This document shows positions 1,060 to 64,000 of a stretch of DNA of 64,000 bases, in pieces. Under the pieces are notes generated by a model. It had not been told where the DNA came from. It did no database searches and saw nothing but the letters and a program-made list of their open reading frames with translations. Within the stretch, counting starts at the first letter, position 1. Every line of letters begins with the position of its first letter. The stretch is from assembly GCA_021513715.1 (NCBI GenBank), contig CP084167.1, positions 2,848,001-2,912,000 of the forward strand, given 5' to 3'. A program made the position numbers and the translations under genes. The DNA comes from Candidatus Heimdallarchaeum endolithica (GTDB lineage Archaea > Asgardarchaeota > Heimdallarchaeia > Heimdallarchaeales > Heimdallarchaeaceae).

Positions 1060-1079
1060 CCTCTCTTTTAATCTCTTTT

Positions 1080-2240: not shown

Positions 2241-2312
2241 TGATTGATGGAAGTGATTTCCATTTTTAAATATTTACTTTTTTATCGGAAAAAACTTAAG
2301 CACAGATTCTAA

Positions 2313-2618: not shown

Positions 2619-2719
2619 ACCTGTAATTTAGTTTTTTGATAGTATTTTTTTTTATTCATCAAAAAATATTTTCTTCTGTTACACAAAAGTTTAATTATGT
2701 CTTTTTTGTCGGTTATTGT

Positions 2720-3073: not shown

Positions 3074-3211
3074 CTTTTAATATTTCTTTAATTTATTTTA
3101 ATTAGACTGTCTCTTTTGTTCACTTTTTAGATAAGAAATATAATAAGACTATCGCTACTTTTTTAAATTATAAATTCGTAATATTTTTAGAAACTCATAA
3201 AAGTGATTAAT

Positions 3212-3610
3212 ATGATGAAAAAAAGAGGTGTTTCTCCAGTAATTGCAACAGTATTGCTTATAGCTCTAGTAACAGCTGCTGCAGCTATTGTATTTTTGGT
3301 AGTTTTACCAATGGTTCAGAATCCTGGTGCACAAGCATTGATTACTACTCCAAATGGAGCTATTGATAATGGAAATGGCACTATGACTTTTAATTTCCAG
3401 ATTAAAGCGACAGGAGGAGATATTACAGTCACTGATGTAACTGTGTCTCCAACAGTAACAGTTAGTTTTACTGCTATAACAATAAGTGCAGAATCTACTC
3501 AAACAGTACAAGTTTGGGGAGCATTTACTGATAATACAGAATATACATTTACTTTTACTTTTACATCAGGAGATAGTTCTTTCACTGAAACAGTATCTGT
3601 AACAGCATAA
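3212..3610 (+). CDS. Archaeal type IV pilin (class III signal peptide)
   Basis: MMKKRG/VSPVIATVLLIALV.AAAAIVF is the PibD/FlaK cleavage motif plus hydrophobic helix, followed by a Thr-rich beta domain. Confidence 0.9.
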   Translation: MMKKRGVSPVIATVLLIALVTAAAAIVFLVVLPMVQNPGAQALITTPNGAIDNGNGTMTFNFQIKATGGDITVTDVTVSPTVTVSFTAITISAESTQTVQVWGAFTDNTEYTFTFTFTSGDSSFTETVSVTA

Positions 3611-3615
3611 AACAG

Positions 3616-3655
3616 TTTTTCTTTTTCTTATTTTTTATTTATTTATTTTGTTTTT
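3616..3655 (+). terminator. Oligo-T archaeal terminator after pilin gene
   Basis: Several T-tracts immediately after the stop codon. Confidence 0.55.
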
Positions 3656-3706
3656 AGAAATTTGCTTATATTTATAACCTATTAAGTTTACACTTATACG
3701 AGAGTA

Positions 3707-4408
3707 ATGGAAAGCGCTGCAAAGTTGTTATTTCAATCTATTAGCTCTATATACGATTCAACAATTAGTAGTAGCGCGCTTCAATCTCAAATCTGTTTTA
3801 AATCTTTAAATAAACCCACTTATTATTATGGGATACGTTTAAACGATTCTATTATTCCTGATAGATTAATTATAAGAATTACAGAGAATAAAAAGGATAT
3901 TTTCATTGATCTATTATGGTTAGTTAATTCTCATGATTTTATAATTAAAAATTGTGCACTATTCTCTTATCAAAAAAAGAAAATTACATGTTCTTCAAAT
4001 TCAAAAGAAGTTAAAATCCTACTAGAGCAAGATCCTTCTATTTCAGCTTGTTATGATGATCTTATAAAAGTAGAGGGATTATTTCAGAAAATTCTTGTAG
4101 GTTCTAAATATTGCTATTTTCAGAAAGTTTTCGATGAAATAGGGGTTGACTTTGATAAAATTCCAACACAATCATTTGCTATCTCTAGAAGTGTTTTAAA
4201 ACAAAAAGAATTAAGTAACCTTCAGTATCAAGACTTTGCAATTAATTCTTTTATTGCAATAATTGATATTGTACAACGTTCATTTGAATTATTAGATTTA
4301 CAAAGAAAAGGAGAAAAAAATATAAGCAAAGTATACTACTGTGTTCGTTGTGGTTATAAAATTCCATCTTCCTCTTACTTTTGCCCTTTTTGTGGTGCAA
4401 AACAATAG
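3707..4408 (+). CDS. Hypothetical protein with C-terminal zinc ribbon
   Basis: C-terminal CVRCG...FCPFCG. Confidence 0.7.
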   Translation: MESAAKLLFQSISSIYDSTISSSALQSQICFKSLNKPTYYYGIRLNDSIIPDRLIIRITENKKDIFIDLLWLVNSHDFIIKNCALFSYQKKKITCSSNSKEVKILLEQDPSISACYDDLIKVEGLFQKILVGSKYCYFQKVFDEIGVDFDKIPTQSFAISRSVLKQKELSNLQYQDFAINSFIAIIDIVQRSFELLDLQRKGEKNISKVYYCVRCGYKIPSSSYFCPFCGAKQ

Positions 4409-49613: not shown

Positions 49614-51020
49614 TTAAATAAAATCTCCTGTTTCTATTTTCTGTGGGAGGTAAAAGTTTGTAATAAATTGTGGATCACGTGCGTTTAGTGCCTGAATTTC
49701 CGCTTTGTATCCTGTGTTTATTAGTATTTCAAGTTGTTCTTGCCACTTTGGTTTTCTTTTTACGAACTCTTCCTCTAACATTAGTTTAGATCGTCTTATG
49801 TCTTTTTGAGTCATTTTAATTAGTGCTTCTCTAGGTATATCAAATCCACTTTCAGGTTTTAGATCACTTGGAAGCAAACCTAACCATTTAATATTTGGAA
49901 CTGCAAGATGAGTAGATTCGAAACTAAGAGCCTTACTCCCAACACTATATACTCTCATGATTTCGAAACCGTAAGGGTCAGCATCCATAATAGCAAGAAT
50001 AGGTAGTTGTAAATCATCGTTTATTTTCTTTAAAAATTGCCTTGTTGCCATATCAGGCTGACCTTTAGCTGTAACTAAAATACTTGGGACATAATCGTAA
50101 AAATGATCTTCTGCTAACCTGTTAAAAATAGCATCTTTTTCTATAACTAAACAAAATTCAGCATCACTTTCCAAATCTTCAATATCATCTATATTTGGAG
50201 AAATAGCCTTTCCTGAACCAATAGCTCTGCAGTCAATGAGATCTCCCTTTTCCTTGAATTGCAACTTACCAACAACAATTCCTTTAGAAGAAGCACTAAC
50301 ATTTAATGATGTTCTAGTAGCTTGAATCATCGCTCCTAAATCTTCAATAAGAGAATCAGAAACTGCTTGTTTCTTAAATGCATTAACATTCATGTAAAAA
50401 ATATCTCTTTTTGTACTGTGGATATCTCGGGAGAGTATATCATGAAGAAGCCTCATTAGTATAGACATTTGTTCAATTGTACTTACAGAAGATAAACTTC
50501 TAAATTGGCGTTCTATCATCTGCCTTCCAATAAGTACTAGCTCTTGTTCTTCATCAAAGCCAATATTTCTTTTTCCTCTTGAAGGGATTTTAAAACCAGC
50601 TTCATCAGGATTGTTAAGTGCTTCATTCAAAAATAATAGCGCTGCTTCAACAATTTTGTTTTTAGCTTTTTCTGAAGACATTGTTTCTACATTAGTTACA
50701 CCATAAGGTAACTCGTAGTCTTGTAATAAAGTAAGTTCATTCCTAAGTTTTCTTATTTTATCAACTGAAACTTTTCTTTTGATTTCAATTCTCATTAATT
50801 CCTTTTTAAGAGAATAATTACTAAGGACTTTACCTTTATCTAAGGAATACCACTTCTTTCCACTTCTCAAAAAGAGTACAAAAGAACCTTTTCTAAGTTC
50901 AAATTCGTCCTGTAATATCTGGTATAATTCGTTTATTTGAATGCTATTATCAAAACTCATCTTTACTTCAGTTGAAGGCAAAATTGTTGCATTTTTTACT
51001 AAAAAATTATATCTTACCAT
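49614..51020 (-). CDS. top6A: DNA topoisomerase VI subunit A (Spo11 family) with N-terminal ubiquitin-like domain
   Basis: IPSR...N, STKRDIFY (catalytic Tyr), Q..SD..IED, Toprim IEKDA, KGQPD.ATR, DADPYG, KAEIQAL. Confidence 0.96.
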   Translation of the reverse strand: MVRYNFLVKNATILPSTEVKMSFDNSIQINELYQILQDEFELRKGSFVLFLRSGKKWYSLDKGKVLSNYSLKKELMRIEIKRKVSVDKIRKLRNELTLLQDYELPYGVTNVETMSSEKAKNKIVEAALLFLNEALNNPDEAGFKIPSRGKRNIGFDEEQELVLIGRQMIERQFRSLSSVSTIEQMSILMRLLHDILSRDIHSTKRDIFYMNVNAFKKQAVSDSLIEDLGAMIQATRTSLNVSASSKGIVVGKLQFKEKGDLIDCRAIGSGKAISPNIDDIEDLESDAEFCLVIEKDAIFNRLAEDHFYDYVPSILVTAKGQPDMATRQFLKKINDDLQLPILAIMDADPYGFEIMRVYSVGSKALSFESTHLAVPNIKWLGLLPSDLKPESGFDIPREALIKMTQKDIRRSKLMLEEEFVKRKPKWQEQLEILINTGYKAEIQALNARDPQFITNFYLPQKIETGDFI

Positions 51021-51030
51021 TTTTTACACC

Positions 51031-54000
51031 TTATTTTGTACTCCTTTTTTTACTTTCAATCTTTTTATCTGCAGTAATTTCATCTAAAGTTGTTTGTTTT
51101 GTCCTTTTTGCTGTTGTTTTCTTTGCTGTTGTACTTGGTTTTTTTGCTGTTGCTGTTGTTTTCTTTGTTGTTGTTTTCTTTGCTGTTGCTGTTGTTTTCT
51201 TTGTTGTTGTTTTCTTTGCTGTTGCTGTTGTTTTCTTTGTTGTTGTTTTCTTTGCTGTTGTTGTTTTCTTTGTTGTTGTTTTCTTTGCTGTTGTTGTTTT
51301 CTTTGCTGTTGTACTTGGTTTTTTCTTTGCTGTTGTACTTGGTTTTTTTGCTGTTGTTGTTTTCTTTGCTGCTGTTGTTTTCTTTGCTGTTGTACTTGGT
51401 TTTTTTGCTGTTGCTGTTGTTTTCTTTGCTGTTGTTGTTTTCTTTGTTGTTGTTTTCTTTGCTGTTGCTGTTGTTTTCTTTGCTGTTGTACTTGGTTTTT
51501 TTGCTGTTGCTGTTGTTTTCTTTGCTGTTGTACTTGGTTTTTTTGCTGTTGCTGTTGTTTTCTTTGTTGTTGTTTTCTTTGCTGTTGTTGTTTTCTTTGC
51601 TGTTGTACTTGTTTTGTTTTTTACAAAAGGAATTGATTGTTTAATTTTCTTTATATCATTATAAGTCATCTCTAGTTTTCCTTCGAGCTGTGATGTTGGA
51701 TAAACAATAAATTCTCCGATTGTATTAATTCCGAGTGATTTTAGCTTATTTCGTATTCCCTGCTTAACATCCAACTTTTCTATTGGTTCTTCTATTAGCT
51801 TTTGTAACTTTTGTACATTTTCGTTTTTGAAAGTGTCTTTTTTCTTCACCCGATTATCAGCAAAGATCAACTCTTCAAAAGAATATATTCCTATTTCCTT
51901 CAGTTTTAATATTGTCTCACTACTCATAAATGGTGTATTTTTTACTATTTGCGTTTTACCTTTTTTTGCTATTTTTAGAGATTGAGGAGTTAAAGTAGCA
52001 AAATAGTTTTTCAACTGTCTTTCTGTTATATTAGTAATTTCAGTTAGTTCATTAATTCTTGTATTAAAAACGTCCCAGAGAGAATACTTCTGTTTATGGT
52101 ATAATTTAAAAATACTGTTTGGCTTATCCTGCATTAGTGCATAGAATGAGTAAATTGGGTATGAAAGAAGTTCTTTTAATGTGGATATCTGTTTAATTGT
52201 TAACTCTGTTTGCTCTTTAATCCTTTTATCAGAAACTGATAAATGTATAATGTGGGAAAAGCCTCCGTTTTCTAAGATAGATTTTTCAGTATCCGAAAAT
52301 AGACCTAAATCTTTGATTCTGTAACTATTTAGTTCTAATTGTTCCTTCACTTTAGTCATATTAAGAGAATGAAGAAGTTCAGTAAATTCTGCATGTTGTT
52401 TTTCTGTAAATTTAATATGTAAATCATCTATATTTTGTAAAAAGAAAAGATCATAAATTTGTTCATAACCTCTTTTTGATAGTTGGGAAAGTATGTTCTT
52501 TTGACGTATAAATAATGCTAATGATGCTCTAAAACAAGAAAGAACGTCTTTTACTTTCATCGATAAATCGCTTATATTTTTTTCTTCAAACAAAGCAATT
52601 AGTTCACCTAATGAATTTATATCATTTTTATTTAGCTCGTTAATTATTTCTTTATCATTTACAAATTCTATAAGTTTAGAATTACTTTGAGCTGTTAATG
52701 AATCTAGATTATGGAATGGAATTTGAGATAAAAAGTTTTTAAGAACAGTTATGTCTGTGGATTTATTTAATAATAGTAAATCATAGACTGTTTTTATGTT
52801 ATTTTTTAGTAGAAGCTTAAATGTTTCCTTACTTTCAAAGACAAGTGGAAGAGAGTAAATTTTTTGTTCTATTCTTAAACGGAGTTTTTCTGTAATCTTC
52901 CATCTCTTTGAAGTTTTTGACTTTGAAACAAGATTAAAGATATAAGCCTCTTCTATGGAGAAAATGTGACCTTGACTTAAAACATCTAATTCAGTTTTAT
53001 CCAAAATTGTTTCTGGAATGGGGGTTAACTTCGATGCAAGAGTACGTAAAGTTTCTAATGATAGATTTCGAATCTGACGTATTAGTTTATTATCATCGAT
53101 TATCTGATTTAACTGGTATTTAGGTTTTAAAATTAAATCTCCAATTGTTAAGTTGCCATATTGTTTGTATTTCTTTTTATTCTCAAAACTTTCACCTACT
53201 AGCAAAATAATGTGCCTATTTAGAAATTGTAAGTATTCATTAAAGTGTAAAGTTATGTTCTCAGGAAAAGAGCTTGTAATATTGTCAAATTTCTTTTTAT
53301 CATATTTCTCCAAAAGAAGTAAAGATTCAAGGGTATGTTGGATTTTTTGTTCATCTTCTTCAGGGAGATTCAACTTTTCTTCGAGTTTGGTTGGTTTTGA
53401 GAAAATAAATGAGTAAATATCAAGTAGCCTTTTTGACACTTGAGAGTCTACTTTTAGAGAGTCATGATGCATATTAAAGAAAACTAATTGTTGAAAACTT
53501 AAGTTGGGAAGTTTTTCATCAAAATATCGTGAAGAGAGTTTTTGTAAAAGTTCAATTTTTGTTCTTAATGAAGGTGAAAGGTTGGAAAAAACATCGGTGT
53601 TTTCAAAAAGATCAAGATAATTTTTAATACTATTTTCTCTTAATTCAGCAATATCAAAATCTTGTAGAACAATATTTGTTTTTAGAGCAGGAGGATTGCT
53701 TATCCTAGAAATAGTAATTTTACTAAGAAAAGTGTCAACTTCACTATTCTTTGTGTCTATAATTTTTGCAAGATCTGATTTAGATAACAAAAGCATTTCT
53801 TGTATAGTACTTACTTTGGACAAAAGTTTCAACCAATTTTCAAGAGGAAGTTGTGGAAAAGAAATTAGATAAATAGACTTGTTTAATATTTTTAGAACAT
53901 TATTTCGTAATTTACTTCTCAGTCTACTGTGTTTCTTTGATAAATCATAAATCAAATCATCAACAACTGTATAATATTTCAATAATTCTTTCTTTGTTTC

Positions 54001-57000
54001 ACTATCAAATAGCATAATATTAGAAAGTTGAACTCTTTTATCTCTCAATTTTCTAATTGTGTTAAGATTCAAAGTTGAGAGAACGCGATTAACTTTCTCA
54101 AGTTGTTTTTCTGTTAAGAATGAAGAATATGAAATTGGCTTAATTAGTAAATCTTTCAGTGTTTCGATTTTATGTTCATTTAGTTTTTCTATTTCTTTTT
54201 CTGTAAAATCTGTTACTATAGAGATGGAACTGTTGAGAAGATTTAAAATTTCTAACCCTTTTTTAGTAAGAGTCTGTTTGTTCATGTACAATACAGAAAT
54301 AAGATCGATTATATTTGAGATATCTGGAATTTCAATGTTTTTACTGAATAAGTCTTTTGAATTAATAGTACCAAGAAAATCTCCTGTTTTTAATGTAAGA
54401 GATAATGTTTTCTTTTTATCTTTAATCAGATTACTAATTATTGTGCTATAACCACCTAAGTTGATTAGTTTATCGTTTTTGATAAGATCCTTGACAGTGA
54501 AAAGATTGTTGTCAAAATATTTTGTTTCAATTTCTTCAAATTCTAAGGAATTAATAGCACCTAAAAATAGGATTGAAGTATCTAATATTTGTTTTATTTT
54601 TGTTTTTATTTTATTTATCTTTTTTATATCGTAAAGCCAGCTGTATATTGAATTCTCTTCTAAATCTGAAAAACTATAGAACCCATAAGAAGACAATATG
54701 TCCTTTTCTTTTTCACTAAGAAATGGCAAATCTACTAAATGATTGGGTTTATCATGTTCAATTGCATTTTTTATGTTTTCTATCTTAATTGATGAACGAA
54801 GTTTTAATATTTGATCAAGTTTAATCCTTGATTTGTGTGCAAGTGTTTTATATGGGATAAGAAGTAAATCTGCAATAGTATATATTCCACCTTTTTTAAG
54901 ATTAGTTTCTAATTTCTCTTCTAATCCTAAGTATCGAATATTAGCTAGTAAATAGGGACTAATTTCTGCAAATATGTTTTTATCTTTTAGGTTAATATCT
55001 CCAAGTAATTCTTGATAAGACAAGTATCCTAGTTTCATTATTTTTTCTTCATATGAAGTTAAAGGAGGGCTAAATTGTTCAAGTTGTAGATTCTTTAATG
55101 TTGATAGACTTGATAAAATTTCATCAACCATTTCATCTTTCAGATTTTGAATAGAGGAAATAACATCAATAATATGAATTATATTTTTGCTATAGCAATA
55201 TTCTATTGTAGAGAGTGTTAGTATAGGTAGATTATTTATATTTCTACATAATTTCATTCTAATGTTTCTAATTTCTTCAAGATATGAATCAGGCAAATTT
55301 GAGAAAAATTCTTCAGGGAAGTAATATAAGTATTCAATAGAGAAAACTCCTAAATTATATAATTTTTGAACTAATGATTTATTTAACTTCAAATTAGCTA
55401 TATCAAGAGTAGAGAATTGAAGAGAAGATAGGTTTCTAATGAAGAGAGAATTGTTCTCTTTTATCATCTTATTTAATTCTGGAAGATAGCTTTCCCACAA
55501 ATAAATTGGAATATGAAGATAGTCATAATAGGTGTTTTTATTTTTCAATGAAGATTCAACATTTATTATTGAAATGCCAAATATTCGTTCAATTGTTTTT
55601 ATTGGTGTAAAGAGAACAGGAAAATTGACTATCAGTTTTTCTTTTTCTTCTTTGCTTATTTCTATTTGATTAACGTCTTGATAAAATAGCTGAATCAAAG
55701 AGTAAATTTCATTTTCATTAAGATGTTTAATCGTAGAAATTTCTGGTTTTTCAATTGTTTTTAGACTAGTACCTTCCTTTGCCTCACGCTTTTTGATGAG
55801 TGGGAGTTTACCCTCTCCTGTGATCTCTTCTTCAGTTAAAGATGGTAAAAGGTTTAAGTCAATACCATAGATTTTAAGTTCTGAAATAATATCTTGTTTG
55901 TTTATTTGTGATTTAATAGTTTTTATTTCTTTAAACTCTATTCCAAACAATTGGCTTAAGGAAGCTGAAGGAATGGTTAAGAATTCAAGAATTGTGTTAA
56001 TTTTGTTGTTCAAAAGAATAGAATTTTGCTGTAATGAGAGAGAATTTAAGAAGGAAGTTGGAGTTGAACCAAACAAAGAGAGAGTCTTTTTTATTGTAGC
56101 TAGATTTTTATCTTCTAAGCTGTAATCTTGTAAACAAAGAAGTTGATCTAAATAATCAATTTTAATCTTTTTTAAAGCTAGCTTCTGTTCCTTCGTCAAA
56201 AACTTTACATCATGTAGTTTGATGGCCCATTTAGGTATTTGAAAATCAGATAAGGAACTTACTAAATATTCTGCCATTTCTGTATTAATCTTTTCTGGGG
56301 GAAGAAGTAATAAATCAAGAATGAGTTTTTTATTTTCTTTTATCAATTTTCTTAAGAACTCGAGTTGTTCTATTTGAGAAAATTTGTCCAACCAAATAAT
56401 TGGATATTTAACCTTGTTTGTGAGGGATTCAGAGTTATTAAAGAGGATTTGAGAACCAATAACAAATGGTTGAGGAAGTAAATCGAGTAAATTAATAACG
56501 TCGAGAGAGGTCTTAATATTTAGTTTATCATTCTTGTTTGATAGAATATCCAAATGGTCTTTAGGGATCAGATTAACCAATTTTTCTTTGGAAAACTCTT
56601 TTACAAAACGGATAATCTCTGTTCTAGCATTTGAAGGAATTGATCTTTTTTCTTCAGAACTGAGTGTAAGAAGTTCAATGATGTTTTTTACTTCGTTTTT
56701 CCACAAATCAAGCTTGACATCTAAAGATATTTCAGGTATAGAAAAAATGTTTAGGCTTAAACCATAGATAAATTCTTCAAGTTTAGCGATGCTACTTGCT
56801 TTTTCTATTTTTTCACTTTCAGAGAATATAAGAAGATATTCTGGTACCAACCCAAAGATATCTTCAAATGATGCCTTTGAAAGGTTAAACTTAAAGTTTG
56901 TGAGTGCACTCATTAACTCTTTATCTTCCTCAAGAATTGGAATGCCTGAACTAAGACTTATATTTCCTTTTCTTTTCTCCTTTAGTTCTTCAGGGATAAA

Positions 57001-60000
57001 ATTAAGGATACTCTTAAGATCTTTTTCTCTAACTGTGAAAAGATCAATAACTCGTAGAATGCGATTCTTTGCAAGAGTACGTTTAATAAATCGCGAAAGG
57101 TTTGAAATTCTGAAAATAGAGGAGTTACAAAGAGATAGAAAAACGTCGATATTTTCTTCAAATTCATCTGAAAATGATTTTATTTGATAGCTTAAACTAT
57201 AAAGATCTTGAACTGTTTCTTTATTTAGTTTTTGTAAAGTCATAAGATTTCTCTTTGATAGTAAGGTTAGAGATTCAAGTTTTACTCCTTTTTCTGCTAC
57301 TTCTTTCTGGATTTTTTTAACTGAAACATTTTCCTTTATTTTTATAATTTCTGCCTCTGGTATGTCTAAGATTAATGATATTGTGGTGATATCTTCTGTT
57401 AAGAAAGTAAGTATATCTCCAACTCCAGAATATACAAGCTTGAGCATTTGCTCTAGTTCTAAATCTAAGAAGAATACTGATGAGAGATACAATTTTGCTT
57501 CTTTGAATACATTCATATTCACTAAATAGGGATATGATTTTCTGATTTCAGACATTCTAGAAATGAAGTCTTGGATTGAATAAATCCCAAGTTCATGTAA
57601 CTTTTCAACATATTCATCTGTAATAGAGGGACAATTTTCTAAAGGAATAGCAAAACTAAGTCTTTTCTCTTTTAGTTCGTCTAATGAAAGCAAGTCAAAT
57701 ATGTGGAATTCATTATAAATTGGATTGTTTAGGATTTGAGACAATTGTCCTTTTTCAAAAAGAGACAAATCAATTACAGAGTGAATGTCGTGTAGTTCTA
57801 ACTTCTTTATTTCTTCAAAAGACAAGAAACTGAGGAAAGTTATTGAACCAGATAATAGCTCTTTGAATTCCTTATATTTTTCTTTTTTTAGAATACTGGA
57901 AGCTCCCATTCTTACTCCTGCATAGTATAAAGTTTCTATATCTGATATCCCTATTTCTTGTAACTTAGAAATTTCTGATTCAGTGATAAGAGATGAGGGC
58001 ATAATGGGGTGAGATCTAGTTCTATGTAATTCGACGATTTCACCGTAGGAAAGATTTTCCTTTATTTCATTAATTCTTTTTTGTGTTTCATTGGATATTT
58101 CAGAAAGTTTCTTGGTAGGGGTAGAATAAAAGTCTATTAATGTTGTAATTGAAGATCGACTGAGAGGGAGAGCGAGATTAGCATCAAGGTTTAGAGACGA
58201 AATAGGGATAGATAAATCGCCTATAAGTTTATCTAAACTATTTTCCTCTCTTAATTTGTTTTTTATTTCTAAAAGAGGAGAGCTCTCTTCAAATTCAAGT
58301 TCAAACAAGATACCTAAAGTTACAGTAGAGAAATCGTTCCTTGTTTCTTCATTCAAAAAGTTAAGAAAAGGGGTTATTCCAAGAGGAAGTTCAAAGACTG
58401 AACGAATAAGTGTAATATTACATTTTTCAAAAGCTAGTTGTCTTTCAAACTCACTGAGAGTTTTAATCAAATCCGTACTGGATATCACATCAAGTAGTGA
58501 TGACTCTTCTATGTCATCTAAAATAGAAGAAAAGAAGTCTTTATTGTATGCTGTTGCAGAAATAAAATCAAAGTAATGATAAGCTCTCATGTCAATTAAT
58601 TTGGATGAATAATCTGAAACTGTCCTAAACAATGTTCTGTCTGTTAAATCGTTATCTAATATGAAAATTAAATGGTAGAGATGTGAAATTTTGTTTTGAT
58701 TGAAAATAGTTAAAGAATAATCTGATATTTCCTGAAAAATTCGTAAAGGAAGTGATAATATCTTCTTTAGTGTGAAAACTTTTCGCCAGATAGATGATTT
58801 TCTATCAATGAAAACTTCATCAGGGCAGTAGAAAAGCTCTTGAATAGATTGAAATCCTTCATAACTATAAATTGTTTCTCTACTTAATGTTCTTTGTTCA
58901 TTTTTATCAAAAAGTTTAGTTTCATATGCATAGATTGCCCTTGTTTCATATTCTTCTCTTATTCTTTGAGAAGTTAAAATGTCTATTATTTCTTTAATTT
59001 CTTTTGTTGAAATGTTTAAGATGCTACTGAGTTTAACAGATGAAGTAGAAACAAAATCAACAATTGTTAATATATCAGCTTTTCTAAGTTCTTCTGTTTG
59101 TGAAAAAGAAAGTTTTGGTAAGAAATATACCGGTAAACTGAAAAAGTAGAATATTTCTCCAAGATCTAGACTCCTTTTAATATTGTCAAATCGTTCATCA
59201 GGAACTCCTGTTCTCTCCATTAAGACTTTGGATGATGTAAGTAGAAAACCTAGTAAGGTGTTTATTTTATTTTTCTTTAGAAGAGTAATTATATCTGGAT
59301 CTAACATATCTGACAAATGCTTAAAGCGTAGATTTAACACGTTTTTTAAGTTCTGTATTATTTCCCAAGGAATTGTGTTAATTGCCCATTTCTCTTGTTG
59401 AGTAGAAAAGTATAGGTCTTCAATGGTAAAAATATTGTTTGTTTCTAGAGTTTCTACTATAGAGGGTCTAAAGATGTCGAGTTCAGAAATGTCAGTACCT
59501 GTTTCACTAATTCGAATGTTTTTCTTGTATTTTTTAGCTTCTTCTAGATCAATTTTCAAGATTGAAGCAATTTTCTCATCACTAACAAGGAAAAAGTCTA
59601 TAATTCGTCTAATCCCAGTTTTTCTTAAAGCATTCAGCTGTTCATGAGATAAACTTGTTATTTCAACTTCGTCTACTTCTTTTTCTTGTTTCGTTTCCTC
59701 GTTTAATATTTTCTTCTTTACTGTTTTTTCCCAAGTGACAAGAGTCAAGGGAGAACGCAATAGCTTTTTGAATTTCTCAATTACTCCCCATTTTATAATA
59801 GTTGCACCAAAAGTATAAGGGTGTGTCAAGTAAAAGAGTTTGTCAATAGAATTGTATCCTATAACAAGTAAGGACAGTATTTCTTCTGGTGAAAAACGTT
59901 CTGAATTTTCGAAATCAAAAGAAATTGTAGATACATATTTTCCACTAGCTACTTTTTCATAAAATGGTTGTCCATCTCTATTTAAATCAAAATTGTTTAT

Positions 60001-63000
60001 TAGTTCATCAAAACTCTTCTTTGAAAAATTAAGGAGTGTTCTTAATTCATCAAAACTGTAATTAAAAAATTGATGTAAGGAGTATATTTTTTTTGATGCT
60101 AAAACCTCATAATCTTTAAGTTTCAAACCTTTTATACGAGTGATTGGGAGTTGCAAAAACTGATAGAAGTCAATTATTTCTTGAGATAGCAAAACTTTTT
60201 CAGAAAAATCATCTGAAACTTTAAGATTTTTACTATTTATGTTATCGTAGAATTCTAGTAAGACTTTCCTGTCTTTATTTTTAGAAATTTCTGTTTCAAT
60301 GAATGCAGGTGTTAGTTGAAGAAAATCTCTTATTGTATTTACATCCTTCGTTTTAAGCTTAAGAATTGCATCATTCAAAGATTTTGCTTTAGCTTTTGTT
60401 GGAGCTAATTTTGTTAAAAAGAGTATATCTTCATTCATGAATTCTTGAAAGTTATTCATTTTTGATAGAAACTCAGAGATAGGTGGGAGTTCTTCTTCAA
60501 TATAAAAGTAAAACAACTCTTGTATTGTTGTTTGTTGTTCATTGAATTGTTTGACCAATCTCGGGAAGTGCTTTTTTATAATTTTTAAATTTCCTTTGTA
60601 CAATTGTTTGTTTTTCTTAACCTTGTCAGCAGATATGCTTTGTTTTAAACGAATGATCTCTTCCTCGTTAAGGTTTAGTATTAGAGAGAGTTCTTTATTA
60701 CTCCATATAAGAAACCTCCCTATACAATTTACTCCTACCTCATTTAATACGTTAATTTTCTCATTTAATTCAGGAAAAGCAAAAATTAAAGGTGTTCGTA
60801 ATAATAAATAATCTGAAATGTATTGATTCTTAGTTTGTTCATCTTCAAATCCGAAATCTTCTGGGTTAGAGTATATTAAATCCTCTACTGTATATATTTC
60901 ATACTTGTTTGCTTTGCTTTTCAAAGATAGAAAATTGGGAATGGGTGTACCTATTTTTTTCTTTATTCTTGCAATCTCACTTTTTAATAACCCCATTTCG
61001 CGTAATCTTTTTGAAGGAGTAATCAAGAATGATGTAGAAGTAAATATTTTATTTTCCAATAATCTTTCTTCTGCCTTTTCATTAATTACTTTGAGGTGAG
61101 ATAAATCAAGATCTCTATTTGTTTCATTGAGATGAGTAAGTATGCGAAGTTTCGATTCTTCCAATAAACTATCCACAAAAATAGCTAATTCCTTTTTCAT
61201 TAAAGTTCTTAACTTTGCATTTGCATATTGGGCTAGAGTATCTATGTTCACAGACTTAAAAATGTCTAATATGCTCTTTTTTGTGCTATCATCTATAGTA
61301 GATATTAGTTTTAGTTTGCTTAGAGGAATTGATTTTTCAGTGTTAGCCAGAATAGTAAAGAATCTTGTGTAAATTGAACGCTCTAATTCTTTGATCTCTA
61401 GAAGGTCCTTAGTTGGTTTTTCAAGAAAATTTTTTATTGTCTCTATCTTTCGTCTATGGAAAGCATTTTTAGTATAACCGTCTATCCAGTCAGGTTTCAT
61501 TTTTGTTATATTAGTTTTTAGAAATTCAGGAAACTTCTGTGAAATATGCGAAAATACTTTCTTAATATAATCAATCAAGATTTCTGTTAAATCATTTTCA
61601 TATTTATAAGAAAAGGGCTCATTAAACTTGAAAATAAAATCTTCTAGTCCTCTAAACTTATTTGAAAAGTTGGGATAGGTTGTTTTTACATAGTTGAAGT
61701 CAGGATATAGAAATTCTTCTTTTAATTCTGAATAAGCAGACATGGTATCCAAATTGAACTTAAATTCTTGAATAAAACTTGATAAATCGACTGTTTCTTC
61801 TGAGTTTTGAGATTTCGTAATTTCACTAATTAACTTAAATTTGTTTCCCTCTATTAAACGCTCTACTAATCCTTCAACAAAACGTAATTGTGTAGCTTCT
61901 GTTGCTAAATAGTGATAACTATTTTGAATCCATCTTTGATATAAAGCTTCATTGAAACTACTACTTGTTCCTCTTGCAAACCTTTTATCAATTGTTTTGT
62001 TTGTTAATGCTTTCAGAGGAAGTTCAGGGCTCAACTTGGACCTGTCTAATTCATAAATTGTCCTTTGCTTTATTCTTGAAACTTCTTTTTTTGAAAGATT
62101 TAGAATTGTGGACAATTCTGAAATTGGTATAGAGAGAAACTTTCCTATTGTTAAAATATTATTTTTAGCACAATTGTTTTTATATTTGTCTGGACACCAC
62201 ACATTAAGTTCAAAAATCGGTGTTCCTAAAGGAACAAAATTCCTAATTTTCTTTTTTGCTCCATGGGCAAGAGCTGCTGCAACCTTATATTTCTCTTTAT
62301 TTATATTTGTATAAACTATTTTTTCATTCTCCAATATTCTAGCGAGATTATCGATTACAACAGGGGCTGATCTTACAAAACGAGATAATCTTGCATGTTC
62401 TCTTTTTCTTCTTTTTGCTCTACTTAGGAAAGTTTTTAGTCTTCTACCAAGTTGTTGCAAAGCTAATCTTATCTCTTCTTCAATCTCAGGAACAGTTGAA
62501 ATATACTCTTTACTAGTTTCAGGAAAAGGAATTTTTGTACTTACTATTGACACAGCAATAGCTAGCGGGTCTGATTGTCTTGTAAGTCCATATTCGCTCC
62601 AATTTAAAGAAGAAACTACTTTTGTAATAACATCATTTCCCGCACCAAAAATTAGAGGAATTCTATTTGCATATCTGTAAATTATTTTATTATCAACTGA
62701 TGTGCTTCCTTTTTGTTGGGCATATTTAGATACTCCACCTCCATAACCTATTGCAGCTTCTACAATAAAAGGGTGGCCAGAGTAAGCTTTTGGAGGACGA
62801 GAAATTGCTTCAACAAATTCTGGTTCAAGTTCTTTTTCTAAACCTTTTCTTAGTCTTGCTGCTCCTAAAGGAGAAAGAGCATCACCTTGTGGAGCGTCGA
62901 ATCTAAAGATCCTATCCCTCTTTCTTTTTATTTCTTTAGCTTCTTGGTATGCTTTAATGAATCCTTCATGAACTATTCTTCTAATTTCTTTTGAAGTAAG

Positions 63001-63936
63001 TTCGCTTGGTTTTTTGTTAGGATCAATTTCCAAAATTTGAAAGAATTCCTCAGCAACTTCCTTTCTCACTCCCATGAAGTCTTTTGATAAAAATTCGATT
63101 AGATCATTTGCAGAGGTTGCAGCTATTTTTGCTTTGAATTGAGTAATATCACAACCAAATGGGTGTAGTTGAATTACTTTTGGAGGATCTGGCATGTCAT
63201 CTACTACTTTTTGAAAAACTAGTTTTTCACTTGTTCCTTCTTCATCTCCAGGTAGTACTACAGTGAAACTAGCATAAGGGGTAATTATTGCTAATTGCTT
63301 AAAGTATTCTTTAATGCTGTTTTTTGCTAGATTCCAAGCTCCAGTGAAAGTTATACTTATCTCAGTTCCACTAGTATGTAAATATCCTTGGTCATCAGGA
63401 TAATATTCATGCTGCTCCATGATGACTGGTTCATTTTTTTCTAAATTAATCATTAAATGAACTTCATTTGTCATTTCTTCCATGAAGTATCTGCTTTTTA
63501 TTCTTGCAGGAAGATCAACTGAAGACATAGAGTGAATTAAACACATCTTGGCTCCTAAACCAAATCTTCCTCTAGTTTGAATCACTCCATATTTTGTCCC
63601 TGTTAATACTCGACCAAAAAGGTTCGGAATCTCGTGACCTGGAACACCTACACCATTATCTCTGCATGTTAACTGAAGAAAATCAAGATGTTTTTCTAAT
63701 TGTTTATATCTAGTAATATCTAATAATTCATTAATTTCAGAACTAGTTAGTTTTCTTAATTCAACATATATTTCTGGATTTACACCTAGTTTTTCAGCTG
63801 CATCTAAACCATTTTCAACTAACTCTCTAACTGATGTGAAAACAGCTCGCATTGAATTACCAAAACCTGCAATAGCCTTATTTTCATTAAAAAAAGCAGC
63901 TGCACTCATTTTTCGTGTTTTATTTTCTTCAGTCAC
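51031..63936 (-). CDS. top6B: Giant DNA topoisomerase VI subunit B with tandem HhH array and H1-like tail (~4300 aa)
   Basis: N-terminal ~550 aa: ELVENGLDA, DNG.G, L.GTKY, RGRFGLG, GTEI, H2TH, RYANRIPL, W..YGL, STKIPF...SKE; single open frame of 12.9 kb; GTG at 63936 follows AGGAGTGA (track start 63945). Confidence 0.93.
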   Translation of the reverse strand: MTEENKTRKMSAAAFFNENKAIAGFGNSMRAVFTSVRELVENGLDAAEKLGVNPEIYVELRKLTSSEINELLDITRYKQLEKHLDFLQLTCRDNGVGVPGHEIPNLFGRVLTGTKYGVIQTRGRFGLGAKMCLIHSMSSVDLPARIKSRYFMEEMTNEVHLMINLEKNEPVIMEQHEYYPDDQGYLHTSGTEISITFTGAWNLAKNSIKEYFKQLAIITPYASFTVVLPGDEEGTSEKLVFQKVVDDMPDPPKVIQLHPFGCDITQFKAKIAATSANDLIEFLSKDFMGVRKEVAEEFFQILEIDPNKKPSELTSKEIRRIVHEGFIKAYQEAKEIKRKRDRIFRFDAPQGDALSPLGAARLRKGLEKELEPEFVEAISRPPKAYSGHPFIVEAAIGYGGGVSKYAQQKGSTSVDNKIIYRYANRIPLIFGAGNDVITKVVSSLNWSEYGLTRQSDPLAIAVSIVSTKIPFPETSKEYISTVPEIEEEIRLALQQLGRRLKTFLSRAKRRKREHARLSRFVRSAPVVIDNLARILENEKIVYTNINKEKYKVAAALAHGAKKKIRNFVPLGTPIFELNVWCPDKYKNNCAKNNILTIGKFLSIPISELSTILNLSKKEVSRIKQRTIYELDRSKLSPELPLKALTNKTIDKRFARGTSSSFNEALYQRWIQNSYHYLATEATQLRFVEGLVERLIEGNKFKLISEITKSQNSEETVDLSSFIQEFKFNLDTMSAYSELKEEFLYPDFNYVKTTYPNFSNKFRGLEDFIFKFNEPFSYKYENDLTEILIDYIKKVFSHISQKFPEFLKTNITKMKPDWIDGYTKNAFHRRKIETIKNFLEKPTKDLLEIKELERSIYTRFFTILANTEKSIPLSKLKLISTIDDSTKKSILDIFKSVNIDTLAQYANAKLRTLMKKELAIFVDSLLEESKLRILTHLNETNRDLDLSHLKVINEKAEERLLENKIFTSTSFLITPSKRLREMGLLKSEIARIKKKIGTPIPNFLSLKSKANKYEIYTVEDLIYSNPEDFGFEDEQTKNQYISDYLLLRTPLIFAFPELNEKINVLNEVGVNCIGRFLIWSNKELSLILNLNEEEIIRLKQSISADKVKKNKQLYKGNLKIIKKHFPRLVKQFNEQQTTIQELFYFYIEEELPPISEFLSKMNNFQEFMNEDILFLTKLAPTKAKAKSLNDAILKLKTKDVNTIRDFLQLTPAFIETEISKNKDRKVLLEFYDNINSKNLKVSDDFSEKVLLSQEIIDFYQFLQLPITRIKGLKLKDYEVLASKKIYSLHQFFNYSFDELRTLLNFSKKSFDELINNFDLNRDGQPFYEKVASGKYVSTISFDFENSERFSPEEILSLLVIGYNSIDKLFYLTHPYTFGATIIKWGVIEKFKKLLRSPLTLVTWEKTVKKKILNEETKQEKEVDEVEITSLSHEQLNALRKTGIRRIIDFFLVSDEKIASILKIDLEEAKKYKKNIRISETGTDISELDIFRPSIVETLETNNIFTIEDLYFSTQQEKWAINTIPWEIIQNLKNVLNLRFKHLSDMLDPDIITLLKKNKINTLLGFLLTSSKVLMERTGVPDERFDNIKRSLDLGEIFYFFSLPVYFLPKLSFSQTEELRKADILTIVDFVSTSSVKLSSILNISTKEIKEIIDILTSQRIREEYETRAIYAYETKLFDKNEQRTLSRETIYSYEGFQSIQELFYCPDEVFIDRKSSIWRKVFTLKKILSLPLRIFQEISDYSLTIFNQNKISHLYHLIFILDNDLTDRTLFRTVSDYSSKLIDMRAYHYFDFISATAYNKDFFSSILDDIEESSLLDVISSTDLIKTLSEFERQLAFEKCNITLIRSVFELPLGITPFLNFLNEETRNDFSTVTLGILFELEFEESSPLLEIKNKLREENSLDKLIGDLSIPISSLNLDANLALPLSRSSITTLIDFYSTPTKKLSEISNETQKRINEIKENLSYGEIVELHRTRSHPIMPSSLITESEISKLQEIGISDIETLYYAGVRMGASSILKKEKYKEFKELLSGSITFLSFLSFEEIKKLELHDIHSVIDLSLFEKGQLSQILNNPIYNEFHIFDLLSLDELKEKRLSFAIPLENCPSITDEYVEKLHELGIYSIQDFISRMSEIRKSYPYLVNMNVFKEAKLYLSSVFFLDLELEQMLKLVYSGVGDILTFLTEDITTISLILDIPEAEIIKIKENVSVKKIQKEVAEKGVKLESLTLLSKRNLMTLQKLNKETVQDLYSLSYQIKSFSDEFEENIDVFLSLCNSSIFRISNLSRFIKRTLAKNRILRVIDLFTVREKDLKSILNFIPEELKEKRKGNISLSSGIPILEEDKELMSALTNFKFNLSKASFEDIFGLVPEYLLIFSESEKIEKASSIAKLEEFIYGLSLNIFSIPEISLDVKLDLWKNEVKNIIELLTLSSEEKRSIPSNARTEIIRFVKEFSKEKLVNLIPKDHLDILSNKNDKLNIKTSLDVINLLDLLPQPFVIGSQILFNNSESLTNKVKYPIIWLDKFSQIEQLEFLRKLIKENKKLILDLLLLPPEKINTEMAEYLVSSLSDFQIPKWAIKLHDVKFLTKEQKLALKKIKIDYLDQLLCLQDYSLEDKNLATIKKTLSLFGSTPTSFLNSLSLQQNSILLNNKINTILEFLTIPSASLSQLFGIEFKEIKTIKSQINKQDIISELKIYGIDLNLLPSLTEEEITGEGKLPLIKKREAKEGTSLKTIEKPEISTIKHLNENEIYSLIQLFYQDVNQIEISKEEKEKLIVNFPVLFTPIKTIERIFGISIINVESSLKNKNTYYDYLHIPIYLWESYLPELNKMIKENNSLFIRNLSSLQFSTLDIANLKLNKSLVQKLYNLGVFSIEYLYYFPEEFFSNLPDSYLEEIRNIRMKLCRNINNLPILTLSTIEYCYSKNIIHIIDVISSIQNLKDEMVDEILSSLSTLKNLQLEQFSPPLTSYEEKIMKLGYLSYQELLGDINLKDKNIFAEISPYLLANIRYLGLEEKLETNLKKGGIYTIADLLLIPYKTLAHKSRIKLDQILKLRSSIKIENIKNAIEHDKPNHLVDLPFLSEKEKDILSSYGFYSFSDLEENSIYSWLYDIKKINKIKTKIKQILDTSILFLGAINSLEFEEIETKYFDNNLFTVKDLIKNDKLINLGGYSTIISNLIKDKKKTLSLTLKTGDFLGTINSKDLFSKNIEIPDISNIIDLISVLYMNKQTLTKKGLEILNLLNSSISIVTDFTEKEIEKLNEHKIETLKDLLIKPISYSSFLTEKQLEKVNRVLSTLNLNTIRKLRDKRVQLSNIMLFDSETKKELLKYYTVVDDLIYDLSKKHSRLRSKLRNNVLKILNKSIYLISFPQLPLENWLKLLSKVSTIQEMLLLSKSDLAKIIDTKNSEVDTFLSKITISRISNPPALKTNIVLQDFDIAELRENSIKNYLDLFENTDVFSNLSPSLRTKIELLQKLSSRYFDEKLPNLSFQQLVFFNMHHDSLKVDSQVSKRLLDIYSFIFSKPTKLEEKLNLPEEDEQKIQHTLESLLLLEKYDKKKFDNITSSFPENITLHFNEYLQFLNRHIILLVGESFENKKKYKQYGNLTIGDLILKPKYQLNQIIDDNKLIRQIRNLSLETLRTLASKLTPIPETILDKTELDVLSQGHIFSIEEAYIFNLVSKSKTSKRWKITEKLRLRIEQKIYSLPLVFESKETFKLLLKNNIKTVYDLLLLNKSTDITVLKNFLSQIPFHNLDSLTAQSNSKLIEFVNDKEIINELNKNDINSLGELIALFEEKNISDLSMKVKDVLSCFRASLALFIRQKNILSQLSKRGYEQIYDLFFLQNIDDLHIKFTEKQHAEFTELLHSLNMTKVKEQLELNSYRIKDLGLFSDTEKSILENGGFSHIIHLSVSDKRIKEQTELTIKQISTLKELLSYPIYSFYALMQDKPNSIFKLYHKQKYSLWDVFNTRINELTEITNITERQLKNYFATLTPQSLKIAKKGKTQIVKNTPFMSSETILKLKEIGIYSFEELIFADNRVKKKDTFKNENVQKLQKLIEEPIEKLDVKQGIRNKLKSLGINTIGEFIVYPTSQLEGKLEMTYNDIKKIKQSIPFVKNKTSTTAKKTTTAKKTTTKKTTATAKKPSTTAKKTTATAKKPSTTAKKTTATAKKTTTKKTTTAKKTTATAKKPSTTAKKTTAAKKTTTAKKPSTTAKKKPSTTAKKTTTAKKTTTKKTTTAKKTTTKKTTATAKKTTTKKTTATAKKTTTKKTTATAKKPSTTAKKTTAKRTKQTTLDEITADKKIESKKRSTK
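51105..51610 (-). repeat. Imperfect tandem repeat encoding TTAKK/TTTKK/PSTTAKK histone-H1-like tail
   Basis: 15-21 bp units such as TTTCTTTGCTGTTG repeated ~28 times on + strand. Confidence 0.95.
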
Positions 63937-64000
63937 AAAATTCACTCCTTATATTCCGAATTAATGTATACTCATACATTTTTTTTCCATTATTTAAAGA

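Follow-up and report, generated by a model that had tools for sequence, protein, structure and literature searches.

A giant topoisomerase VI B subunit with a long helix-hairpin-helix-type array and a PIP-like C-terminal peptide in Candidatus Heimdallarchaeum endolithica

The gene and its Top6B core

The window, a stretch of 64,000 nucleotides from contig CP084167.1 of Candidatus Heimdallarchaeum endolithica, carries on its minus strand the genes for both subunits of topoisomerase VI (Topo VI). The ATPase subunit, Top6B, is about eight times as long as normal. The relevant features are, in window positions:

51031..63945, minus: whole giant top6B ORF, 4,304 aa plus stop, translated without interruption
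62266..63945, minus: canonical Top6B core, aa 1-560, with GHKL ATPase, H2TH region and transducer (NCBIfam, 2zbk_B alignment)
63541..63834, minus: GHKL (Bergerat) ATP-binding region, aa 38-135 (Pfam HATPase_c)
62392..62892, minus: transducer domain, aa 352-518 (Pfam Topo-VIb_trans, 4.6e-57; the genome search agrees on its place)
62200..62247, minus: low-confidence linker, aa 567-582 (residues 28-43 of AF2 fragment 540-945, pLDDT<50)
51613..62265, minus: repeat array, aa 561-4111, with 43 supported units of ~64 aa, 3 degenerate units and ~700 aa of other helical sequence
51034..51612, minus: basic low-complexity tail, aa 4112-4304, of Thr/Ala/Lys/Pro-Ser units
51073..51099, minus: PIP-like peptide KQTTLDEIT, aa 4283-4291, 13 aa before the C-terminus
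49614..51020, minus: top6A, 468 aa (Pfam TP6A_N and TOP6A-Spo11_Toprim)

Translation starts at the GTG at 63945 or at a close in-frame start, up to the ATG at 63909. The start of top6A lies 10 nt further downstream in the same orientation, and its product bears an N-terminal extension of about 110 aa (alignment to 2zbk_A begins at aa 111). A genome search found this to be the sole top6B of the closed, single-contig 3.33-Mb genome, with no normal-size copy elsewhere in it. An earlier sequence-only reading of the window had seen a genuine giant Top6B and had asked whether a second, normal-size top6B exists; the first point is borne out and the second is answered in the negative. Giant Top6B is evidently the sole, functional Topo VI B subunit of the organism and presumably co-transcribed with top6A. 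The interval 51630-62230, under which that reading had entered the protein, corresponds to aa ~572-4105, i.e. the repeat region alone.

The core exceeds the cut-offs of both NCBIfam equivalogs, PRK04184 (475.5 bits, cut-off 274) and TIGR01052 (405.4 bits, cut-off 380.7), and was aligned over its full length to residues 5-488 of S. shibatae 2zbk_B (1.4e-87). In this alignment the N-box, G1, G2 and switch-lysine motifs are present, and ELVENGLDA, DNGVGVP and GRFGLGAK line up with the S. shibatae protein. An intact core of ~550 aa had been claimed before, and the retained motifs clearly indicate that the ATPase/transducer core is catalytically intact.

The repeat array and its conservation

The array comprises 3,551 all-helical residues. 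A unit HMM, iterated on giant Top6B and 13 colinear orthologues with shuffled copies as control, recognized 43 units at i-E<0.01 (0.05 per shuffled copy), 41 at 1e-3 and 49 at <1, about 6 of the latter being expected by chance. Profile-profile comparison added three degenerate units, which gives 46. The ~55 copies counted by eye in the sequence-only reading are consequently too many; its description of ~3500 aa built from a ~60-aa unit holds for the units of ~64 aa, but not for ~700 aa that are confidently helical and unrecognisable as HhH-type unit. HMM hits are often spaced by -7 to +10 aa. The supposed alternation of long and short forms receives slight support from a two-unit periodicity along the array (permutation p=0.006). 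Pairwise identity between units averages 18% and reaches 41.5% at most, and Tandem Repeats Finder detected no DNA-level tandem array within the repeat array; its one hit, with a period of 18/21, lies in the tail (51112-51620). Such divergence agrees with the earlier view that the array is no artefact of identical repeats, and by this measure its units are old. Among the other genes of the genome no HhH-type unit was found at E<=0.001, with a single 91-aa ORF at 0.008.

Sequence and fold both support placing the units in the (HhH)2 fold class of the RNAP alpha-CTD and the RAD51 N-terminal domain, as had been proposed. Pfam RAD51D_N matches the array at 7.4e-21, and the unit profile matches RNAP alpha-CTD 2max at 1.8e-5 and RAD51 NTD 1b22 at 1.3e-3. 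AF2 models of fragments, a check suggested earlier, gave folded chains for residues 1418-1790 (pLDDT 87.1, pTM 0.81) and 540-945 (pLDDT 84.0, pTM 0.78) from shallow alignments of 33-36 rows. For six-domain chains these pTM values are high. In the second fragment the low-confidence linker follows the final helix of the core and precedes the first of the HhH-type units. Single units superimpose on 9q25_D (Z 7.3, rmsd 1.2 Å over 53 residues), 8gj9_B (Z 7.4, rmsd 2.4 over 57; Foldseek probability 0.98-0.99) and 1z3e_B (Z 5.9). Further matches are HhH domains of Y-family polymerases and XPF as well as SAM and NusA AR domains (Z 4-5.6). The hairpin glycine is kept in 50% of the first and 15% of the second hairpins.

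The full-length protein is under purifying selection. A second closed genome encodes a 4,185-aa orthologue, and the comparison of both (dS ~0.7-0.8; 0.66 for the array) yields a dN/dS of 0.014 in the core; the 3,551 codons of the array have 0.088, and the tail reaches 0.131. More than 35 further genomes, from relatives, carry ORFs of 3.3-4.3 kaa without stops, and they share the colinear architecture with ~50 database proteins. When family members of different genera are aligned they remain colinear, and the array shows just one indel, of 31 aa; length and unit order are fixed. The survey of Asgard Top6B lengths envisaged in the sequence-only reading places all proteins of at least 1,118 aa in a single clade (100/100) apart from normal-length Asgard copies, with lengths from 1.1 to 4.3 kaa inside it. 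The extension has one origin and was lengthened stepwise inside Heimdall-group Asgard archaea.

GyrA was detected in 45 of 46 sampled genomes from families with giant Top6B only, and in none of 7 genomes from two families that keep a normal Top6B alongside an extended copy; this correlation is drawn across kin, so the cases are not independent, and it is imperfect (f14, f20 and f23 combine gyrase with apparently normal Top6B). That gyrase-bearing lineages keep this putatively tethered Topo VI alone would fit a specialised decatenation or fork-associated role, with gyrase in charge of general supercoiling.

Possible roles of the arm and the tail

The tail of 193 residues has a net charge of +58 (62 K+R, 4 D+E); the sister closed genome encodes a tail shorter by 119 aa. 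The tails evolve fast, and the 13 compared from the family cannot be aligned except at the PIP-like peptide, in which Q, T and L are invariant and D is nearly so. Hodarchaeales-type proteins have similar endings (QxxLxx[FY]); Kariarchaeaceae-type tails contain no such peptide. The peptide agrees with the archaeal PIP consensus peptide KTTQSTLDSFFK (PMC4929162) at positions one to five and has I-T in place of the canonical aromatic pair (M/V/L-x in relatives). A complex model with the genome's own PCNA reached an ipSAE of 0.80 in three of three runs (best control 0.00), a mark that 58 of 80 solved complexes attain, as do 2 of 110 mismatched pairs. Contact agreement came to 42% or more, with a partner pLDDT of 48 or higher; the alignment had 13 rows, and the partner's fold is uncertain. 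The predicted interface pairs aa 4280-4291 with PCNA residues 43-50, 126-133 and 250-257. Many PIP-PCNA complexes have already been solved, so the high score may stem from resemblance to them and not from binding by this particular protein. If contacts with DNA and partners are to be assigned, the strongly basic tail and its invariant peptide are the foremost candidates.

As a tentative explanation, somewhat short of probable, we propose that the array is a long, folded arm of conserved length, by way of which the basic tail connects Topo VI to DNA and the docking peptide connects it to PCNA. The array would then serve mainly as a fairly stiff arm and not as 50 DNA clamps in a row, its rigidity being taken from AF2's own pTM for two fragments. 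A short flexible linker joins core and arm, and each A2B2 enzyme would have two arms of ~100 nm if extended, an estimate that allows 2.5-3 nm for every 60-aa domain. At the distal end the polycationic, disordered tail could anchor the enzyme by non-specific DNA binding while the PIP-like peptide docks on PCNA. Topo VI might thus be kept near replication forks or clamp-marked DNA, with the core still able to reach DNA crossings or precatenanes inside the arm's radius. Mildly basic proximal and distal units may contribute DNA contacts.

Unlikely, yet deserving attention, is the proposal of the sequence-only reading that most, if not all, units are (HhH)2 domains which bind dsDNA non-specifically and that the arms wrap, bridge or compact DNA, either as a processivity clamp like that of Topo V or as a chromosome scaffold. 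The fold class does bind DNA, as the matches to alpha-CTD, RAD51/RadA NTD, Y-family polymerases and XPF illustrate; half of the units retain the first-HhH G-I hairpin, and an S-K-K-like second hairpin is common. Across the family the array is mildly basic in its proximal ~500 aa and again in its distal third. Against binding by every unit stands the net charge, a crude proxy for DNA binding, of +2 over 3,551 aa here and of -52, -90 and -119, with basic ends, in other lineages. Strongly acidic arrays belong to f2, Kariarchaeaceae-type and Hodarchaeales-type orthologues. Each of the 14 family members has an acidic central third, and the same holds for the central 1,500 aa; few second hairpins keep their glycine, the fold also mediates protein-protein contacts (NusA AR, SAM domains), and generic coating of DNA does not need a strictly conserved length and unit order. 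The fold class of the earlier proposal stands; non-specific DNA binding by every unit, for wrapping or compacting DNA as a chromosome scaffold, finds no support. Some array units may bind DNA; since the tandem (HhH)2 domains of Topo V make few direct DNA contacts and still encircle DNA and boost activity (PMC9489208), DNA binding by the arm is conceivable.

Less probable again is a protein-interaction platform, in which position-specific units recruit replication, repair or chromatin partners or self-associate like SAM domains, so that Topo VI is a hub or condensate component not tethered to DNA. Each unit is conserved between genera, yet the units are mutually 18% identical, as expected if every position has its own job. 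Neutral or acidic surfaces, the protein-binding SAM and NusA AR matches, and unrelated proteins that combine tandem alpha-CTD-like arrays with regulatory domains point in the same direction. The Z values, however, lie within the range common for helical domains, and at the threshold given above the unit occurs in no other gene of the genome. Finally, an artefact is hardly credible, be it misassembly or fusion of the ORF, chance read-through of a pseudogene or production of the core alone, because two independent single-contig genomes and the many colinear relatives share the gene, the array is constrained over its whole length, it holds no DNA-level repeats able to mislead an assembler, and its genome has no other top6B.

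Comparison with known systems

In the literature searched, we found no published description of a giant Top6B with HhH-type array and PIP-like tail. By its sequence the protein is a member of the canonical archaeal Top6B family: it shares GHKL ATPase, H2TH, transducer and adjacent top6A with the S. shibatae subunit (2zbk_B, 530 aa). Some lineages of gyrase-encoding archaea, Asgard among them, have C-terminal additions of their own behind the transducer (Villain et al. 2022, PMC9348778), and M. mazei Top6B (2q2e_B, 621 aa) ends in an Ig-like domain. Known additions amount to ~100 aa and one globular domain, whereas here ~3,740 aa comprise 43-46 HhH-type domains, a basic tail and a PIP-like peptide.

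Archaeal PCNA clients with a C-terminal PIP-box include Fen1, RFC-L, PolB, NucS and NreA (PMC4929162). As in these, the giant Top6B peptide is placed at the very end of the chain beyond a disordered linker, has a K-Q-x-T-L-D start like the consensus and is modelled in the canonical PCNA pocket; unlike them, it lacks the aromatic pair. No report of Topo VI as a direct PIP client was found in the literature, and the only precedent, cited in PMC4929162, is that Topo VI subunits of P. abyssi co-purified from extracts together with NucS/PCNA.

For single units, RNAP alpha-CTD and the NTDs of RAD51, RadA and RAD51 paralogues (Pfam RNA_pol_A_CTD, RAD51D_N) are the best sequence and fold matches. These domains occur once per protein, whereas giant Top6B chains dozens, in which the position of the DNA-contact arginine of alpha-CTD is not conserved.

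Nearest in layout, as had been suggested, is Topo V of Methanopyrus kandleri, a type IC enzyme with 12 tandem (HhH)2 domains (PMC9489208). In both proteins the catalytic part of a topoisomerase precedes a long tandem series of (HhH)2-type domains, a layout seldom seen otherwise. Their catalytic domains are unrelated (type IC monomer, type IIB A2B2), and an AP-lyase function is not indicated in giant Top6B. Topo V is absent from the listed structural matches of single units, though the two may be related. Giant Top6B has about four times as many units, of the alpha-CTD/RAD51-N kind and mostly without hairpin glycines, unlike Topo V, and its array is neutral or acidic where Topo V has a positively charged track. 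By analogy, giant Top6B may work like Topo V, but as a Topo VI subunit rather than a member of the Topo V family.

Intact Top6B core, HhH-type array and locus

The giant top6B gene encodes a real, selected and intact topoisomerase VI B subunit (Top6B) with a folded arm of helix-hairpin-helix (HhH) domains, followed by a basic tail and a peptide conserved near the C-terminus. Translation of the window gives a single open frame of 4,304 codons on the minus strand, running from 63945 to 51031, which divides into core (aa 1–560), array (aa 561–4111) and tail (aa 4112–4304). The features discussed besides core and array are the following.

49614–51020, minus strand: top6A, 468 aa, 10 nt downstream of giant top6B; Pfam TP6A_N 4.4e-19 and Toprim 2.3e-59
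50691–51020, minus strand: N-terminal extension of Top6A (first ~110 aa), preceding the part alignable to S. shibatae Top6A
51034–51612, minus strand: basic tail of Top6B, 193 aa, a fast-evolving Thr/Ala/Lys repeat with an 18/21-bp DNA tandem repeat
51073–51099, minus strand: peptide KQTTLDEIT, aa 4283–4291 of 4,304 and 13 aa before the C-terminus, resembling the PCNA-docking motif (PIP)

The core scores above the cut-offs of both NCBIfam Top6B equivalogs (PRK04184, 475.5 bits against 274, aa 7–550; TIGR01052, 405.4 bits against 380.7), and aa 1–560 align over their full length with Top6B of S. shibatae (2zbk_B, 1.4e-87). The ATP-binding boxes are kept (N-box ELVENGLDA, G1 DNGVGVP, G2 TRGRFGLGAK), and the transducer switch lysine (...ETSKEY...) aligns with the S. 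shibatae residue, so that the intact core claimed by the sequence-only reading stands. Presumably, the Bergerat-fold motifs (N-box E/N/D, G1 DxGxG, G2 GxxGxG) and the switch lysine have the roles known from the S. shibatae structures. Nothing in the core suggests a dead enzyme, and ATP-dependent A2B2 strand passage is predicted from its sequence. The expected partner gene, for a Top6A of the 5Y-CAP/winged helix plus Toprim type, is present: the top6A product matches S. shibatae 2zbk_A (8e-57), with an alignment starting only at aa 111. For the resulting N-terminal extension the top Pfam match, MxiM (E 0.026), is not credible.

The genome is a single contig of 3.33 Mb (92.6% complete by marker count), in which giant top6B is the only match to the Top6B transducer family; a normal-size top6B elsewhere, for which a search had been proposed, is thus lacking. 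Relatives in the databases, named Candidatus Heimdallarchaeaceae, Kariarchaeaceae and Hodarchaeales, carry the plain label 'DNA topoisomerase VI subunit B'. Precomputed annotations of nearly all giant relatives (proteins P0002–P0049) include PF26169, which is absent from our Pfam scan of this protein (E ≤ 0.1), perhaps because the family is newer than the Pfam copy used.

The repeats located at 51630–62230 by the sequence-only reading proved to be the repeat part of the 63945–51031 frame. A unit HMM was seeded on the Pfam RAD51D_N match and iterated within the protein, then over 14 colinear orthologues. It converged on a 64-position unit and detected 43 units in the giant Top6B at i-E < 0.01, compared with an average of 0.05 in a shuffled copy. 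Comparison of 11 gaps with the unit profile (hhalign) added three degenerate units, at aa 888–916, 2776–2821 and 3119–3160, while core segments, used as negative controls, scored nothing. The other gaps, including aa 628–804 and 1769–1910, scored like these controls and were not recognised as unit. The shuffle-controlled HMM and the profile–profile comparison therefore support 43–46 units instead of the ~55 counted by eye, a number that would apply if the whole array were units. About 700 aa of the array, including the two stretches just named, are helical with high predicted confidence yet unlike the unit, and an ESM-Atlas feature search with aa 636–804 returned sub-threshold leads alone (0.85 to DUF8371).

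Identity between units averages 18% with a maximum of 41.5%, and Tandem Repeats Finder detects no DNA-level repeat in the array (51613–62265); the array is hence old, as had been assumed. The same program confines DNA tandem repeats to the tail (51112–51620). A two-unit periodicity is significant (permutation p=0.006) and fits the earlier impression of alternating forms, but it is weak.

For the whole protein Pfam RAD51D_N reaches 74.5 bits (cut-off 27.3), and a 30-unit profile compared with all PDB sequences retrieves the RNA polymerase alpha-CTD (2max, 1.8e-5) and the RAD51 N-terminal domain (1.3e-3). Single units mostly fall under Pfam cut-offs, with an RNA_pol_A_CTD match in 4 of 30. Two fragments were modelled with AlphaFold2: aa 1418–1790 (pLDDT 87.1, pTM 0.81; 36 orthologous rows in the alignment) and aa 540–945 (pLDDT 84.0, pTM 0.78; 33 rows). 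A single unit superimposes on RAD51-paralogue N-terminal domains (9q25_D, Z 7.3, rmsd 1.2 Å, 53 residues; 8gj9_B, Z 7.4, rmsd 2.4 Å, 57 residues; Foldseek probability 0.98–0.99 for 8gj9) and on an alpha-CTD (1z3e_B, Z 5.9, rmsd 2.3 Å, 59 aligned), and more weakly on NusA AR, the HhH of Y-family polymerases and SAM domains. Since such Z values are 'middling' on the scale of the tool, the fold matches carry weight only jointly with the sequence evidence. Judged by profile similarity and the predicted compact five-helix fold together, the unit is of the (HhH)2/alpha-CTD/RAD51-N type, the class that had been recognised by eye. In 581 aligned units from 14 orthologues the hairpin glycine is kept in 50% at the first and 15% at the second hairpin, and two glycine-containing hairpins (h-x-x-h-x-G-h-G type) per domain are not the rule. 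Consequently, the units are degenerate or pseudo-HhH at many positions. A six-unit fragment has no PDB match at E ≤ 1e-3 in Foldseek, and neither Foldseek nor VIA-align returned a solved structure matching more than one unit at once; Topo V chains are absent among the matches listed, though the repeats may still be distantly related to those of Topo V. Because the VIA-align matches are limited to single units, no solved structure explains the packing between units.

No other gene of the genome matches the unit profile at E ≤ 0.001. The lone match outside the giant frame, a 91-aa ORF outside the window (G000:C1:2099400-2099564, plus strand, E 0.008), is possibly a stand-alone HhH-type domain. 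In a library of 1.84 billion proteins the profile also matches NusA and tandem alpha-CTD-like arrays of unrelated proteins, hence the unit is not exclusive to Top6B. Unrelated metagenomic proteins (P0113, P0092, P0093, P0086, P0090) contain tandem runs of 4–12 alpha-CTD-like domains, with sigma-70 region 4, HTH, Clp_N, S1 or EAD1 as partner domains. Multi-alpha-CTD arrays are therefore a wider phenomenon, apparently an unstudied one.

Charge of the array, basic tail and a putative PCNA anchor

According to the sequence-only reading, the array units bind and wrap DNA and make the enzyme a chromosome scaffold. The array contains 494 K+R and 492 D+E, a net charge of +2 over 3,551 aa. Along the array, the family shows a mildly basic start (~500 aa), an acidic centre (~1,500 aa, in 14 of 14 members) and a distal third that is again mildly basic. 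In relatives the array carries −119 (sister family), −90 (Kariarchaeaceae-type) and −52 (Hodarchaeales-type) and is basic at the ends only. Topo V, by contrast, surrounds DNA with a positively charged track built from twelve (HhH)2 domains (PMC9489208). The values of +2 here and −52 to −119 in relatives argue against such a DNA-enclosing track, and a conserved polycationic arm coating DNA is not what these compositions indicate, although net charge is only a proxy for DNA binding and Topo V itself makes few direct DNA contacts. Binding by some units is possible, but wrapping along the array is improbable. Still more doubtful is a role of the array as a protein-interaction platform.

In the tail 62 K+R face 4 D+E. 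The tail of the same-genus closed genome is 119 aa shorter and retains the terminal KQTTLDEI, and in 13 orthologues with otherwise unalignable tails Q, T and L of the peptide are invariant and D nearly so. Canonical PIP motifs follow QxxhxxAA, ending in two aromatic residues, and the archaeal consensus peptide is KTTQSTLDSFFK (PMC4929162). The latter shares Q-x-T-L-D with our peptide, which, as in the published definition (PMC4929162), provides Q-x-x-[LIM] near the terminus after a flexible linker. Unlike the canonical motif, it has aliphatic residues in place of the aromatic pair at positions 7–8 (I-T here, M/V/L-x in the family). Some Hodarchaeales-type proteins possess endings of the QxxLxx[F/Y] type, with F or Y at position 7; these were not found in Kariarchaeaceae-type tails.

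The last 55 tail residues were modelled with the genome's own PCNA, encoded at L014:1060-1875 on the minus strand, in three runs, alongside three controls. All three runs gave an ipSAE of 0.80, against 0.00 for the best of the three controls. In the calibration sets, 58 out of 80 solved complexes attain this mark, as do 2 out of 110 mismatched pairs. Contacts agreed to 42% or more, and the pLDDT of the partner was 48 or higher. The modelled interface comprises exactly aa 4280–4291 and PCNA residues 43–50, 126–133 and 250–257. As many PIP–PCNA complexes have been solved, the model supports binding at the interdomain-connector/C-terminal pocket only as a likeness to these complexes, not as binding by this particular copy.

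Our preferred reading, to which we give somewhat less than an even chance, is that of an anchored enzyme. The arm would be a fairly stiff connector of conserved length, the tail would attach to DNA and the peptide to PCNA, thereby holding the enzyme in place, and the core would act on DNA crossings within reach of the arm. An anchored design would suit an enzyme known as a preferential decatenase (PMC8837201). A more far-reaching version, which we consider rather unlikely as a whole, has the only type IIB topoisomerase of Heimdall-group Asgard archaea turned into a clamp- and DNA-anchored machine that arose once and lengthened stepwise. Its two rigid arms, with ~45 HhH-type domains and ~100 nm each (the rise per unit and the length of the arm both being estimated values), would act as a molecular ruler or leash, physically linking decatenation or the removal of supercoils with the replisome or the architecture of the chromosome.

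Conservation, origin and gyrase context

A second genome of the genus, likewise a single contig, encodes an orthologue of 4,185 aa, and comparison of the two genes yields dN/dS values of 0.014 (core), 0.088 (array) and 0.131 (tail). Across several genera, 14 members of the family can be aligned colinearly over their full 4.2 kaa, the array showing a single indel of 31 aa; the units keep their number and order as sequence identity drifts to 25–55%. An artefact is thus very unlikely, the misassembly and pseudogene readings being rejected on the strength of the sole top6B in a single-contig genome, colinear relatives, low dN/dS and the lack of DNA repeats in the array.

Between the two closed genomes, dS is ~0.29 at aa 3301–3900 (52246–54045, minus strand) against 0.7–0.96 elsewhere in the gene, and dN/dS in this stretch stays at ~0.12–0.16. 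Recombination between lineages or local mutational differences may be the cause of the low dS.

Top6B sizes were obtained from whole-genome scans with the transducer model followed by open-frame length. They amount to about 4,140–4,305 aa in the own family, 4,244 aa in one sister family, about 3,470–3,590 aa in Kariarchaeaceae-type families and about 2,312–2,346 aa in the Hodarchaeales-type family, closed genome included. Another family of the class has two copies, a normal one of ~500 aa and one of ~1,120 aa. Two families outside the class reach about 2,290 aa and 1,353 aa, and the remaining sampled Asgard families have 500–700 aa. In a maximum-likelihood tree of the core (without the 1,353-aa protein of genome G219) every Top6B of at least 1,118 aa falls into one clade with 100/100 support. 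Asgard copies of normal length, among them the short paralogue from the two-copy family, lie outside this clade. With midpoint rooting only, the 1,118-aa form is sister to all other extended proteins. Along the length series the family-trained HMM, which undercounts in distant lineages, detects 7, 18, 25, 24, 38 and 43 units. The single clade and the rising unit counts mean that, on this tree, the extension arose once and subsequently grew (1.1 to 2.3 to 3.5 to 4.3 kaa).

GyrA is present in 45 of 46 sampled genomes from families whose sole Top6B is the giant form (f1 20/20, the sister family f2 1/1, f3 5/5, f4 3/3, f5 14/15, f6 1/1, f25 1/1) and in 0 of 7 genomes of two families keeping a normal copy beside an extended one; three other families combine gyrase with an apparently normal Top6B. 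Since the sampled genomes are related, this association should be read as a pattern, not as a statistical test. Villain et al. proposed that, once gyrase had arrived, Topo VI gained C-terminal extensions specific to individual lineages (PMC9348778), and the pattern agrees with this. In sampled Hodarchaeales-type genomes gyrA immediately precedes giant top6B, in the same orientation (for example G053:C1:4657199-4661141, G055:C68, G047:C9 and G057:C23); in the present genome the two genes are ~440 kb apart. GyrA here is a 1,270-aa ORF with a split Pfam match. Its gene is situated outside the window (G000:C1:2465029-2467680, loci L011/L012), and profile positions 1–41 and 37–431 match ~1.3 kb apart. 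Judging from its sequence the split gyrA probably holds an intein, and the same split occurs in the sister genome and several relatives.

Significance and comparison with Topo V

The gene itself is publicly deposited under an ordinary label, and general mention has been made of C-terminal extensions in Asgard Top6B. In the full-text literature searched we found no giant or HhH-bearing Top6B, and no account of the HhH array, of how large it is or how it grew, or of the tail. Such a protein is not described in PMC12680538 (main text), PMC11302465 or PMC9348778; in the last, the only C-terminal extensions described for Asgard archaea with gyrase are globular and lineage-specific.

A whole class of Asgard archaea keeps a B subunit of eight times the usual size under strong purifying selection. 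For such enzymes in general, the way in which they are guided to their proper DNA crossings is a question that the field has yet to answer. A tether to PCNA or DNA would represent a new way of localising a topoisomerase, and among archaea the arm would rank with the longest domain arrays known on a single chain. If the anchored-machine reading is true, this mode of targeting would be without known counterpart and would occur in the archaeal lineage nearest to eukaryotes. If instead the arm binds DNA along its length, the topoisomerase would double as a chromatin protein. The link to gyrase bears on the division of labour in archaea after gyrase acquisition (PMC9348778). The protein divides into testable constructs (core, arm fragments, tail, peptide), and the naturally occurring arms, graded in length (7, about 25, about 24–38 and 43 detected units), amount to a ready-made structure–function experiment.

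Among known systems the layout is that of Topo V, in which tandem (HhH)2 domains follow straight after the topoisomerase domain (PMC9489208). The catalytic core, however, is different, being Top6B here and type IC in Topo V.
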